Virus record (IMG/VR): IMGVR_UViG_2877982868_000011
DNA from: a virus
Taxonomy: Duplodnaviria > Heunggongvirae > Uroviricota > Caudoviricetes
DNA: 63,284 nt
Strand: one strand, 5' to 3'
This document shows positions 48,001-54,000 of the stretch, one piece after another. Position numbers: made by a program. Numbering within the stretch: position 1 is the first letter of the stretch; each line of letters begins with the position of its first letter.

Positions 48001-51000
48001 GGCTGTCACGACTGCCTGTTGCTTGTTACGGTTGATTTCGAGCTGGGTCCACTTGTCGCGGAGTTTGGCCGGGCTCAGCACGTTACCGGACCAGAAGTTG
48101 TCCTGGCATGCCCAGCGGAACAGCACGCACATGTCGCGGTGGTTACGTCCGTCACGTTCACGCATCAGGCGGATATCGTTAGCCCACCCAGCAAAATTCG
48201 GTTTTCTGGCTGATGGTGCGATGGTCTTCACCATGTCAAACATCCACTCTGCGGCGGTCAGGTCTTCTGCTGTTCCCCACTTGCTGCCGCTCTGAATTGC
48301 AGCATCCGGTTTAACCACAGAAAGATCGTTTTCTGGCTGGTCAGAGGATTCGCCAGAATTCTCGGACGAATAATCTTTTCTTTTTTCTTTTGTAATAGTG
48401 TCTTTTGTGTCCCCCTGTTTTGAGGGATAGCAATCCCCTAATTTGAGGGATGTTTTATCCCTCGTTTTAGGGGATTTTCCCTCGTTTTGAGGGATGTCCC
48501 TCATTTTAGGGGAACCTCCCTCGTTTTGAGGGATGCACCATTCTGAGGTGTTTTTATTTGGTCCAAACATGCCGCCTTGCTGCTTGATAATATTCATTCT
48601 GACGAGTTCTAACTTGGCTTCATTGCACCGTTTGACGGGTAACTTTGTAATCTCGCTAAGTTGAGAATCGGTGATTCTGTCCATTGGTTTATTCCACCCA
48701 TAGGTTTTACGCAGAATGGCAAGCAGCACTTTAAACTGTCGCTTGGTCAGATCTGCGCCTGAATAAGCCTCAAGCAGCATATTTGATAGTCTGGCGTAAC
48801 CATCATCGAGATCTGCCACATTACGCTCCTGTTCGGCAAAGTTACCTCTGCCGAAGTTGAGTATTTTTGCTGTATTTGTCATAATGACTCCTGTGGATTG
48901 ATCCAGTAATTCCCTCAGAATTGCATATCAATTTGCTTAGAGTCCCCGGCGGCCACCGGGGATTTTTTCTTTGTGATTTCATCAAGCGCATACTTAAAAG
49001 CTCTGCTAATCGGACTGATGTCTGATGCCATGCCAAAAGCACACAAGACCGAAGCTATAAACCTCCAGTCTGTTCTGCTTATCTTCGATTCATGACAGCC
49101 AATCATCTTTGCCAGACCGCGCTGGGTAAGCGTTGACAGGTTGATGAGTAAATCAGTTTCAGCGCGATCAATTTCTCGCTGTGATAGTTTGCTGTAACTT
49201 GTTTGTTCCATTTCTTAAGATTTCCAATAGTGAATAGCTAGTTGAAAGGTATGCGTGGAAACGCATATGGCCTTAGTTGGTCAGATATATTGGGACTCGC
49301 TTTGTCAGCGACGTAGGACGAATGTCCATTGTGAAAATAGCGGTGTTACTTATGCAGCCGATGCTCTACGCGATACGAACACTAGGTTTTCCTTTTTCAC
49401 AGGTTTATAACCCGTGAAATTACGAGTAGCTTCTTCGATTGCATCCGCTTTATCAGGGGAAGCTCTTCGAAATCCATATGCAATCTGGTCAAGATAGCCA
49501 ACTGAAGTTTTCGCTAATGCGGCGAGTCGCTTCCATTCCTCACTAGAAGCCTCTTTTCGCCAGCGTAGTAGTTCATTACTCATTAGTGCCTCCGTTTATC
49601 ACACAGAACAACTTTACCATTTTGATAAATCATCCGCAATGTAAATTTATCATATTGCGTATTTATCCATTTGCTAAATAGAGGGAAAATTGTGAGATGG
49701 AAAACAAAGATATTCGCAAATCGAATCTGGCGTTTTTGCTAGATGAGCATAAAAAAATCGCGGGTAACACTAATGCAAGCTTTGCCGATAAGCTTGGGGT
49801 TAGCCCTTCTCAACTCACGCAAGTCTCCGGTGAAAAAAGCACTCGAAACATAGGGGATAAACTAGCAAGAAAATTTGAAGCCGCGCTTGGGTTACCTAAT
49901 GGGTGGCTTGATTTGGTACATGATGTAACACCAATTGCATCATGCTCAGATTCTTTAACTTTTGTCGGTCAGGTAAGAAAAGGGTTAGTGCGCGTGGTTG
50001 GTGAGGCAATTCTTGGTGTTGATGGTGCCATCGAGATGACCGAAGAGCGCGATGGGTGGCTCAAAATTTATAGCGATGATCCAGATGCCTTTGGTCTTCG
50101 TGTGAAAGGAGACAGCATGTGGCCCAGAATAAAATCAGGAGAATATGTACTCATTGAGCCTAACACCAAAGTATTCCCGGGTGATGAGGTGTTTGTCAGA
50201 ACTGTTGAAGGACACAACATGATCAAAGTTCTTGGCTATGACAGAGACGGAGAATACCAATTTACAAGCATCAACCAGGACCACAGGCCAATAACGTTGC
50301 CTTATCATCAAGTAGCAAAGGTGGAGTATGTGGCTGGTATTCTGAAGCAATCTCGCCATCTGGATGACATCGAGGCAAGGGAGTGGCTGAAAAGTTCGTG
50401 ACTTCATCGTCACATAGCTGGTAACCAGTGGCCTGAAGAGACGTTTGGGTGATGTACATAGCATTTCTGGATAAAAATACAGATTCCCTTTATGGGAAAT
50501 GAATCTATAATTCCCAAAGAGGGAACAAAATCGGATTATGAAGGTCTTAAACGTAGAGAAGCTTCACAGTTTTAGCCGGAAGCACAATCAGGCCAAGGGG
50601 GCTTTAGACTCTTGGTATGATGAAGTGATAAGAGAAAACTGGAAAACGACTCAAGACATACGGAATAGATTTAATTCTGCCGACTTCCTTCCTAACAACA
50701 GGGTAATTTTTAATATAAAAGGCAATAACTATCGGCTCGTTGTCCAAGTTGTTTACCAGGCAGGAATGGTCATAGTTGAAAGAGTTGGAACTCATGCAGA
50801 GTACGACAAGTGGAGGCTTAAATGAATCGAACTAGCTGGCGCATCATTAAAAATAGTGAAGAGCATGCTGCAGCTATGGAAAGGCTCATTGAACTTGCGT
50901 CTAGTGATTTACAACCTGGAACTGAAGATTTTGATGAGTTTGAACTACTAGGCTTGCTTATCGAGCACTATGAGTCACGCGAGTTCCCTATGGACAAGCC

Positions 51001-54000
51001 AGATCCCATAGAAGCAATCAAGTTCCGTATGGATCAACAAGGCCTCTCTTATGCCGATATGAAACAATACATTGGCTCAGCATCTAAAGTATCTGAGGTC
51101 TTAAATCGTAAGCGTCCATTAAGTCTTTCAATGATCCGTAGACTACATGACGGACTTGGAATTCCTGCAGATATCTTAATTCAAGATATGAGCGCAATTG
51201 AATGGAGCCTAGTTGACGCAGAGGAAGAAGAAACAGCCATGACTAGCGTCATTGCTCGGTGTGAGTCAGCCGTCACATCACCTTCTGCTTATTTCGCTGA
51301 AAAGGCTACAGAATCTTACTTTTCAAAAATGTTGTTCAGCGCAGTAAGGGGTAATGGCAAATGCAAAGAAAAACGGAATGTTTTTTCTTTGATAAGTAAC
51401 TTGTCATCAAGTTTCACAGCGGCTAGCAACCTGAATGACGAAATGACTTCTGACGGAAATTACTTATTATTACCATGAAAATTGAACTCATTAGCAAAAA
51501 AGTTGAACGCTTGGTTATGACACGGCTAGAAGGCGATTCAACAGCAAAAAAAGCCATAAAAACAACCGTTAATCTAAATAATGAACTTTACACTAATGTG
51601 AAGGATTCAAAGCTATTTAGAGTGAGATATTTTGCCTCCGTAACTATTGAAGGCAGGCTTGAGATGGACATCACATACGACTTTGACTTCCGGTCAGAAG
51701 ATGATTTTTCTCATGAAATGGCAAAATCATATGAGGTAAGGTCCATTGCTCCCAATATGGCATATCCCTATATAAAAACATATGCCGAGCAAATTATCCT
51801 CATGTCAAACCTTGGTAGGTTCACTCTGCCTTATTTTGATTTCTTGGCCAATCCCATGGAAACGAACAGTAATAAGTGAAATTCCCCACCCGGCCTCAGC
51901 GCCGGGTTTTCTTTGCCTCACGATCCCCACACCTAAAAACACATAATCAATTGTATTTGTTGAAAAATAAATAGATACAACTTGCTAAACAACGCAATCC
52001 AGATCTCCCTCAAATCTCTTTATTTATCCTGTCGAATTCCTACAACAAAATAAAACACCATAAGAATCAATACGATATTTGAAAACCAAGAGAATTTATC
52101 ATTTTGCTATTGCCATTAATTTATCATTCCGATAAAGTTCACCCATCAGCAGGACGCACTACTCACCAGGGCGGTGAATATACAACGATTCGAATATGAA
52201 TCTACGGCGCTGACAAAGCGCAATAACCAAAGTGAACTTTGGGGTGAATGCAGAAGCTAACCTTCTCGGCGGAGGCGCTTTGCAATGATTACGCGACCGG
52301 AGTTAGTCGCCCGGCTGTATTCACCGCCAAAGTTCATCAGGAGGTTCCATATGACACGCAGAACTCAGTTCAAAGGCAATTCTCGTTCTCGTCGTCGTGA
52401 GCGTTTAAAGGCAAAGGCATTAGCTAACGGCGTACTGGCCCGCGAAGAAGCAATAAGTTCAGAAGTATTACACCGCCCAACTCTAAGTAGAGCGCAGATT
52501 CAGGCTAAAGGTACTCACGAAACGCCTGATCGCATAGAAGACGCTAAGCCAATTAAGTTCATGGCACAGGACGTGATCTGGCAGCAGGAAGAATACAGAC
52601 GCAATCTGGAGCGAGCGGCCATTGTGTACGCGAATGAGTTTGGACATAAGCAACCAGAAACTGGTGTATGTCTTCCAAATGTAGCTCTTTACGCGGCAGG
52701 CTACCGGAAATCCAAACAACTGACAGCAAGATGACTTGTGTTGGTCGCCAGAAAATGAAATTAGGCAGCAAACCACTTATTTGAGGTGATATATGACAAA
52801 ATCATGGAGCGTACCTTTTCCTGAATCAGAAACTGAACATGATGGAATGCCTGTTTTCTGGAGATTCCAGGCGACAGTTGAAGAAGATGGGATAAAAATA
52901 TTCGCACTTCAATATATAGCTTTTCATCAGACAGAGCATTATGCATGGTTGGTTCCTGCGCATTGGATTGTTAATTTTAAACCAGCACCAAATCAGTGGT
53001 TACAGGAATGGAAACAAAGGAGAAATAGATATGCAATTAAGAAAGTAGCAAAAAATGCAGAAAGATCTTTTGCATTCCCAACGAAGAAACTTGCCATTGA
53101 AAGTTTATTGCGCCGGAAGAAATACCATTTAATGAGAATCAAACAAGATTTGGCTGTTGTATCAACTCTTGTTGATGGTATGAAGAATATTGATACATCA
53201 ACACCAGATATTGAATATAACTTTGGACACAACCAAGAAACAGAAAATTGGGTATTTTATTAGTACGAATAAGCACTGTGTATTCATTCCAACGAGTGAA
53301 TACACGGAGCAATGTCGCTCGTAACTAAACAGGAGCCGACTTGTTCTGATTATTGGAAATCTTCTTTGCCCTCCAGTGTGAGGGCAATTTTTTTGACGGA
53401 GGATATATGAAATTACGTGTCTGGCATATCCCGCAAGTACCTATGAAGCCGTTCATTGTAGAAGTGGCAAGTGTTGAAGAGGGTGTTCGTCTGATGGACG
53501 CACTGGCTGATTATGACGCCTTTCAGTATGACAACAACATCAAGCCTGATTACTGCAATGCTAACGGCCTTGAGATGTGGGATGAGAGCCTTACCGATGA
53601 AGATTTATCAGAGATGGGGCTTACTGATCGCTGGGTGGATTGGTACAGCGAATGCCAATGTTACGACGACCCACGTAAATATCTCGAAAGCCTGAAAGAA
53701 GAAACATCAGCCGCCTAAGCGCGGCTTTACCGCATACCAATAACGCTTCACTCGAGGCGTTTTTCGTTATGTATAAATAAGGAGCACACCATGCAATATG
53801 CCATTGCAGGGTGGCCTGTTGCTGGCTGCCCTTCCGAATCTTTACTTGAACGAATTACCCGTAAATTACGTGACGGATGGAAACGCCTTATCGACATACT
53901 TAATCAGCCAGGAGTCCCGAAAAATGGATCAAACAATTATGGCTATCCAGACTAAATTCACTATCGCCACTTTTATTGGCGATGAAAAGATGTTTCGTGA

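Follow-up and report, generated by a model that had tools for sequence, protein, structure and literature searches.

We analyzed a 63,284-nucleotide stretch of DNA from a virus of the class Caudoviricetes (IMG/VR record IMGVR_UViG_2877982868_000011; the whole stretch is referred to as the window), focusing on three consecutive genes downstream of its cI repressor gene. These genes very probably form a HigBAC toxin-antitoxin-chaperone (TAC) anti-phage system, an allele of that of Escherichia coli NT1F31, in the cI-to-N slot of a 933W-type prophage that is converting for Shiga toxin (Stx) 2a. The genes had been described as TAC-like in an original prediction made from the sequence alone, which amounts to a correct blind rediscovery of a published system. 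That interpretation is supported, but a 2024 study had already reported the system together with where it lies, how it works and what triggers it, and our analysis adds no new mechanism. Two minor points are added here: the system is carried on 933W-type Stx2a phages that have no homologue of gpV, a tail protein of lambda, and the geometry of its operator-like sites is conserved. The HigBAC study by Mets et al. was reportedly published later in Cell Host & Microbe. Its 2024 bioRxiv version (10.1101/2024.02.24.581848), on which we draw here, characterized HigBAC of NT1F31 experimentally as an anti-phage TAC system.

The features of the locus are as follows.
50538-50825, + strand: higB, 95 aa.
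50822-51478, + strand: higA, whole open reading frame (ORF), 218 aa.
50822-51184, + strand: higA core, residues 1-121, the folded HigA/Xre helix-turn-helix antitoxin part.
51185-51478, + strand: higA ChAD tail, residues 122-218 and stop, predicted disordered, with aromatic anchors W128, F158, F188 and Y214.
51475-51879, + strand: higC, 134 aa, SecB-like chaperone (SecB-TA).
50484-50498, no strand: distal palindrome TTCCCTTTATGGGAA, TTCCC-N5-GGGAA, 15 nt, candidate HigA operator half-site pair with a putative function.
50506-50511, + strand: perfect -10 hexamer TATAAT read from the sequence, with a weak -35; candidate autoregulated higBAC promoter.
50511-50525, no strand: proximal palindrome TTCCCAAAGAGGGAA, abutting the -10; candidate HigA operator.
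51888-51915, + strand: intrinsic terminator that closes the operon ahead of the OL/PL-N region.
49697-50401, + strand: cI-type repressor with helix-turn-helix and S24 peptidase (Pfam Peptidase_S24, 3.8e-16; CI or LexA-family repressor in the BP-4795 and RefSeq annotations).
52285-52734, + strand: antiterminator N (Pfam N_peptide, 2.1e-15; BP-4795 annotation), the downstream boundary of the slot.

The genes follow each other on the + strand in the order cI, higB, higA, higC and N, with a 136-nt gap between cI and higB and an ATGA 4-nt stop/start overlap at both junctions within the module. The tight coupling of three genes between cI and the OL/N region, as originally described, was confirmed, including the S24-type cI and the N flanks identified by Pfam. 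Beyond cI, the genes cro, cII, O and P are divergently transcribed. The order of the slot corresponds to that of lambda (cI, [rexAB slot], OL/PL, N), and the module therefore lies in the same lysogen-slot position as rexAB in lambda, again as predicted. The module is AT-rich, with a GC content of 37-41% compared to 49.5% for the window, which would fit an acquired moron.

The product of the first gene belongs to the HigB family, in agreement with the predicted 95-aa HigB-like toxin. It was matched by Pfam HigB_toxin (4.5e-30, far over the gathering score), by E. coli HigB structures in the PDB (~1e-4) and, within PADLOC, by PD-Lambda-2_A (2.5e-42), and its RefSeq record (WP_000866443.1) is named 'HigB family toxin'. 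Judged by its family, HigB is predicted to be a ribosome-dependent mRNA interferase of RelE type. Among the orthologous loci, higB was left uncalled in two contigs (L007, 4055-4342, and L010, 4052-4339), where the ORFs are intact and the same as in neighbouring contigs. The seeming absence of higB is a gene-calling artefact, and automated calls under-report this toxin.

HigA consists of a conserved core and a long tail. The core was matched by a PDB HigA (5e-5 over residues 53-119), by Pfam HTH_3 (3.6e-4) and by PADLOC PD-Lambda-2_B (3.8e-50 over residues 5-127, profile positions 3-125 of 402). In a search of 5.8 billion proteins, ordinary HigAs of 122-135 aa were 60-66% identical to this HigA and aligned only to its first ~54%, ending at about residue 125, and tailed forms (190-245 aa) were confined to Enterobacterales. 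An AlphaFold2 model, for which homologues were taken from the same search, had pLDDT values (per-residue model confidence) above 90 for residues 1-128 and below 50 for residues 129-218, which contained no secondary structure. The claim that the last ~90 residues of this 218-aa antitoxin have no counterpart in ordinary HigA is borne out by these alignments, and the tail is predicted to be disordered. The tail drifts fast among divergent orthologues, yet its aromatic anchors are kept.

The AlphaFold2 model of HigC (pLDDT 86.9) is composed of four strands and a long helix. Its top Foldseek match in the PDB was 5MTW, the Mycobacterium tuberculosis TAC chaperone Rv1957 with a ChAD peptide (E 5e-7, TM score 0.73-0.75), and the next matches were SecB of E. 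coli (1QYN) and of Haemophilus influenzae (1FX3); overall, the set ranged from E 5e-7 to 3e-6 with TM scores of 0.70-0.77 over 125-135 columns. Because the alignments span nearly all of the 134-aa protein, all of HigC would be SecB-like: the predicted resemblance to SecB stood as a matter of fold, but its restriction to the C-terminal half did not. In addition, HigC was matched at full length (3.2e-11) by the PADLOC hidden Markov model (HMM) PD-T4-9_C, which represents CmdC, the SecB-like chaperone of PD-T4-9/CmdTAC. HigC had no family in NCBIfam and is recorded as hypothetical in RefSeq. Thus, the locus has the co-directional toxin-antitoxin-chaperone order, a type II toxin family, an antitoxin core with an unstructured ChAD, and a SecB fold whose nearest relative is a TAC chaperone; together with the CmdC match, these features uphold the TAC architecture proposed at the outset. 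The only testable TAC feature that we did not find was detection of gene 3 by the Pfam SecB profile.

In orthologous loci of Serratia, Citrobacter and Pantoea, a minus-strand ORF of 66-69 aa without a Pfam family lies directly downstream of higC (L007 and L008, 5456-5656; L009, 5432-5638; L011, 5462-5671). No ORF of at least 40 aa was present at the corresponding place in the window.

The module was compared with NT1F31 HigBAC using the oligonucleotides and synthetic fragments in the supplement of Mets et al., which map to 50388-51918. Positions 50388-50786 of the window correspond to the first 399 nt of the NT1F31 'TAC region' in a gap-free alignment that contains eight differences, seven of which are in the 5′-untranslated region (5′-UTR). 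One of the 288 nucleotides of higB differs (I31R), leaving 94 of 95 residues identical, and there was one difference (R185Q) in the 202 nt of higA covered by the oligonucleotides and none in the 175 nt of higC covered. The HigB substitution is probably neutral, because orthologues have I, R, K or V at position 31. In the published system (HigB WP_112844290.1, HigA WP_112844289.1, HigC WP_112844288.1), HigA is 218 aa long with the ChAD at residues 122-218 and anchors at W128, F158, F188 and Y214, and the pocket residues of HigC are Y39, N41, R49 and D71 (10.1101/2024.02.24.581848). All eight of these anchor and pocket residues are at identical positions in the window proteins. The two systems also have the same gene set and lengths (HigB 95 aa from its ORF, HigA 218 aa from the numbering in the paper, and HigC 134 aa as indicated by primers at 51475-51879), the same position in a lambdoid prophage, the variable locus after cI, and 5′-UTR palindromes and a terminator that are both inside the cloned fragment. 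The window allele differs by HigB I31R, HigA R185Q, at least one HigC difference outside the sampled stretches, seven substitutions in the 5′-UTR and one in the terminator loop. It also differs in its carrier, a short-tailed 933W/Sp5-type Stx2a-converting phage; neither Shiga toxin nor Stx phages are mentioned in the main text of Mets et al. None of the complete E. coli genomes contained a 100% match to a 120-nt query with the NT1F31-specific primer variant.

Much of what can be said about function comes from the work on the NT1F31 allele. In that system, HigB specifically blocked translation, and HigBA was toxic without HigC, which restored growth. HigA without the ChAD was chaperone-independent, whereas rescue was lost when three ChAD aromatics were mutated or when HigC carried R49A. 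HigA inactivation needed neither ClpXP nor Lon. The operon defended against lambda-vir and Bas25, with escape phages carrying gpV S54P, and lambda gpV was found to bind HigC by isothermal titration calorimetry, hydrogen-deuterium exchange and immunoprecipitation-mass spectrometry, and to compete with the ChAD (all from 10.1101/2024.02.24.581848). The prediction of an exclusion or abortive defence with a chaperone-dependent antitoxin is thus demonstrated for a near-identical allele, and by analogy the same mechanism would operate in the window.

According to this model, which was shown experimentally for the NT1F31 allele and is carried over to the window by near-identity, HigB would act as an mRNA interferase that stops translation, and the folded N-terminal domain of HigA would neutralize it, while the disordered 97-residue ChAD would leave lone HigA aggregation-prone and inactive. 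A SecB-like HigC tetramer would wrap the ChAD, with four pockets taking W128, F158, F188 and Y214, such that HigA stays functional; HigA of the window allele is therefore expected to neutralize HigB only when HigC is present. Upon infection by a lambda-like siphovirus, the major tail protein gpV, which would present a similar aromatic/acidic pattern, could compete co-translationally for HigC. HigA would then be lost, HigB freed and translation halted, and the infection would be aborted. By the same analogy, the window allele may defend against lambda-like siphoviruses and may be triggered by gpV-HigC binding.

The region upstream of higB suggests how the operon may be expressed. The sequence TTCCC-N5-GGGAA occurs twice in the 63-kb window (0.10 sites expected by chance), and the two sites bracket the perfect TATAAT, which is the palindrome-flanked -10 element noted in the original prediction. 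The distal palindrome, the -10 and the proximal palindrome are located at -54, -32 and -27 from the higB ATG, and these positions are kept in Serratia and Citrobacter despite diverged flanks; the Pantoea locus retains the proximal palindrome (-27) and the -10 (-32). Both palindromes and the -10 are untouched by the seven 5′-UTR differences between the window and the NT1F31 fragment. Because the -10 has no good -35, a consensus sigma-70 scan called no promoter upstream of higB, and the case for a promoter is built on the perfect -10 and its conservation. This layout fits a promoter that would be autoregulated by HigA through both TTCCC-N5-GGGAA sites. In addition, a terminator scan detected none on the + strand between cI and higB, making read-through from the cI promoter P_RM into higBAC plausible, like that into rexAB in lambda. 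In a lysogen, higBAC would be transcribed from P_RM by read-through and/or from its own TATAAT promoter.

At the other end of the operon, the predicted terminator was recovered as a hairpin at 51888-51915, 9 nt past the higC stop. A 7-bp GC-rich stem (51888-51907) is followed by UUUUCUUU, with a folding free energy of -13.7 kcal/mol and a z score of -2.5. Equivalent hairpins also follow higC in Serratia and Citrobacter. Mets et al. included the terminator in their cloned fragment by means of primer MT16_terminator_rev, which has one mismatch to the window, in the hairpin loop. A 9-nt segment, TCAGCGCCG, that comprises the loop and 3′ arm of this hairpin (51896-51904) is perfectly complementary to 52205-52213, 300 nt downstream and just upstream of N; this complementarity may be due to chance or to long-range RNA pairing near nutL.

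Several observations weigh against the identification of the module as an NT1F31-type HigBAC system, or limit its reach. Pfam SecB gave nothing for HigC at E values up to 1, and neither phmmer nor an HMM built from 20 family sequences retrieved a SecB chain from the PDB sequences. Profile searches had been proposed as the check on all three proteins; the HigB and HigA/helix-turn-helix families were matched, while the Pfam SecB and family profiles missed gene 3, a result that we consider overridden by the fold and the CmdC HMM. The proposed homology of HigC to SecB rests on these two lines, one of which is a structural model, and the escape from Pfam SecB is a matter of the sequence distance between TAC chaperones and housekeeping SecB, which have the same fold. 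As for the allele, the RefSeq accessions of the window proteins (WP_000866443.1, WP_001082382.1 and WP_000687675.1) all differ from those of NT1F31, and the module is therefore an allele of NT1F31 HigBAC with at least one residue changed per protein; the direct comparison covers about one third of higA and half of higC, so that near-identity elsewhere is presumed. The defence data were obtained with the NT1F31 operon on a constitutive plasmid promoter, not in a native Stx lysogen, and would apply to the window by analogy. Finally, the proposed own promoter is a -10 without a convincing -35, and binding of HigA to the palindromes is predicted.

Other explanations were considered for what the module is and what it does. 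Type II toxin-antitoxin modules, including HigBA of plasmid Rts1, were first described as stabilization systems, and higBAC is in a prophage and adjoins its immunity genes. It could be argued from these facts that the main role is prophage stabilization or addiction, an alternative also named in the original prediction, in which loss of the prophage would stop synthesis of HigA and HigC, free HigB and kill or arrest cured cells, with defence being secondary. This appears improbable given that inactivation of HigA in the near-identical allele is independent of proteolysis by ClpXP or Lon, and that gpV was identified as a specific trigger from which mutants escape, as is characteristic of a sensor and not of simple addiction (10.1101/2024.02.24.581848); the two roles are, however, not mutually exclusive. 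Alternatively, an ordinary HigBA pair may be accompanied by an unrelated hitch-hiking third gene, with the long HigA tail being non-functional. As would be expected for such a hitch-hiker, gene 3 fits no family in Pfam or NCBIfam and is hypothetical in RefSeq, but its SecB fold is confidently modelled and closest to a TAC chaperone, it is joined to higA by a 4-nt stop/start overlap, the three-gene order is kept across genera, the tail retains its aromatic anchors, and chaperone dependence was shown experimentally for the near-identical NT1F31 allele (10.1101/2024.02.24.581848). We regard this explanation as scarcely credible.

A third alternative is raised by the defence-system profiles, because the strongest PADLOC matches of genes 1 and 2 were PD-Lambda-2_A (2.5e-42) and PD-Lambda-2_B (3.8e-50), which would make the module a PD-lambda-2-type system (Vassallo et al. 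2022). However, the second match stops at position 125 of the 402 in the profile, and the C-terminal ImmA/IrrE-type peptidase domain that defines this system is absent (no Pfam peptidase was detected, and the tail is predicted to be disordered). The third gene also differs: PD-lambda-2C was described as P4-antitoxin-like (Vassallo et al. 2022, PMC9519451), whereas gene 3 has a SecB fold and, in PADLOC, matched PD-T4-9_C only and not PD-Lambda-2_C. For lack of the peptidase domain and because of the different third gene, identity with PD-lambda-2 was rejected as very unlikely. The two systems have closely related HigB and HigA N-terminal domains and both defend against lambda (PMC9519451, for PD-lambda-2), but a peptidase-fused HigA-like protein and a P4-antitoxin-like protein in one correspond to a disordered ChAD and a SecB-like chaperone in the other, and what they have in common is only the HigBA 'warhead'. 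PADLOC 2.0 would split the present module between PD-Lambda-2_A/B and PD-T4-9_C, an illustration of how HigBA 'warheads' and sensor parts are exchanged as modules.

The HigBAC assignment also places the module among several other systems. CmdTAC/PD-T4-9 (Vassallo et al. 2022 and 2024, PMC9519451 and PMC11618068) has the same TAC logic and a homologous SecB-like chaperone as phage sensor, and is likewise prophage-borne and abortive. Its toxin is the mRNA ADP-ribosyltransferase CmdT, its antitoxin is unrelated and its targets are T-even phages, whereas here the toxin is a HigB RNase and the targets would be lambda-like siphoviruses. Identity with CmdTAC was rejected, since gene 1 is HigB without a match to PD-T4-9_A, and the antitoxin differs as well. 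The TAC system of M. tuberculosis (HigB1-HigA1-Rv1957, 5MTW) resembles HigBAC in its HigB-family toxin, HigA with a C-terminal ChAD and SecB-fold chaperone. Although Rv1957 is the best structural match of HigC, the two are only 16-17% identical in sequence; in addition, the mycobacterial tail reaches less than half the length of the E. coli ChAD and contains a degron for ClpXP, whereas inactivation of E. coli HigA is ClpXP-independent (10.1101/2024.02.24.581848), and a role of the mycobacterial system in phage defence was not established in the literature searched. Lambda RexAB, which is expressed in lysogens and mediates abortive exclusion, occupies the same slot between cI and OL/N, and Mets et al. 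also gave the rexAB slot as the location of HigBAC (10.1101/2024.02.24.581848). None of the three proteins matched a Pfam Rex family, and homology to RexAB was rejected: only genomic position is common to both, with no relationship in sequence or fold.

The window represents a 933W/Sp5-type Stx2a-converting phage (Sepvirinae) that includes stx2A; over 50 kb, its identity to VT2-Sakai, Stx2a_WGPS9 and ST2-8624 is 99.8-100%. Its immunity region is of the BP-4795/H-19B type. The phage is a mosaic (window 1-50000), with late/structural and stx2 regions of the 933W/VT2-Sakai type (short-tailed Sepvirinae) and an immunity region, including higBAC, that is common to the long-tailed Stx1 phage BP-4795 and H-19B-type phages. 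Of 5,426 complete E. coli genomes, 88 contained the full-length module, as did at least 30 deposited phage records, most of them for Stx1a- or Stx2a-converting phages; carriers include the reference strains 86-24, O26:H11 11368 and H19. In BP-4795, Stx2a_WGPS9 and RefSeq genomes of Shiga toxin-producing E. coli (STEC), the three genes are annotated as 'hypothetical protein', 'transcriptional regulator' or 'helix-turn-helix domain-containing protein'. No connection between HigBAC and Stx phages was reported in the literature searched.

Beyond E. coli, synteny of HigB, long HigA and HigC is retained down to ~50% HigC identity in Serratia, Citrobacter and Pantoea. In two of these three genera, Citrobacter and Pantoea, the prophage module follows a cI-type repressor gene; the Serratia module has P22-like surroundings. 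In Serratia marcescens (L008, 614-2749 and 7186-10405), HigBAC has a DUF927 primase-like gene on one side and P22-type ejection genes (gp7, gp20 and gp16 families) on the other. This location, away from cI, suggests that the cassette moves between different prophage hotspots.

Additional observations were made around the module. In the Citrobacter and Pantoea prophages, a 32-aa ORF of the YoaK family (PF28021) is located between the cI-type repressor and higB (L009, 3797-3895; L011, 3788-3886), and no equivalent was found in the window at 50402-50537. Between the higC terminator and N, the 11-nt sequence AATTTATCATT is repeated directly and without mismatch at 52093-52103 and 52118-52128, 25 bp apart, and the repeat overlaps a promoter-like + strand site (52110-52138); these are candidate OL operators and PL of this immunity type. 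Annotations of the start of N (window 52285-52734; L003, 3452-3835; L004, 3803-3871) disagree: the protein has 149 aa in the ORF list used here, as it does in BP-4795, and 127 aa in RefSeq and Stx2a_WGPS9. Downstream of an otherwise identical higBAC in O26:H11 11368, the annotated N is a truncated pseudogene only.

Carriage on 933W-type phages is relevant to the trigger of HigBAC. No homologue of lambda gpV was detected in the window (tblastn best E 1.8), and the carrier phage would therefore not trigger its own defence on induction. In the long-tailed carrier BP-4795, the major tail subunit had a marginal 25-residue match to gpV (E 0.003) outside the trigger loop (48-78). There is no evidence for self-triggering, and remote structural mimicry of gpV may exist. 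It is conceivable, at somewhat less than even chances, that in lysogens of enterohaemorrhagic E. coli the HigBAC of 933W-type Stx2a phages and of Stx1a phages of STEC (O26 and other) serves as a superinfection exclusion system that discriminates by tail type, aborting infection by gpV-making siphoviruses while sparing its gpV-less carrier, and that it is expressed both by P_RM read-through and from a HigA-autoregulated two-operator promoter. No such role is described in the literature searched.

A defence system in STEC that is active against lambda-like siphoviruses, as the characterized allele is, would be relevant to competition among prophages and to the choice of therapeutic and biocontrol phages. 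If it does discriminate by tail type, such exclusion could shape the accumulation of prophages in STEC genomes and matter for phage-based control of these bacteria.

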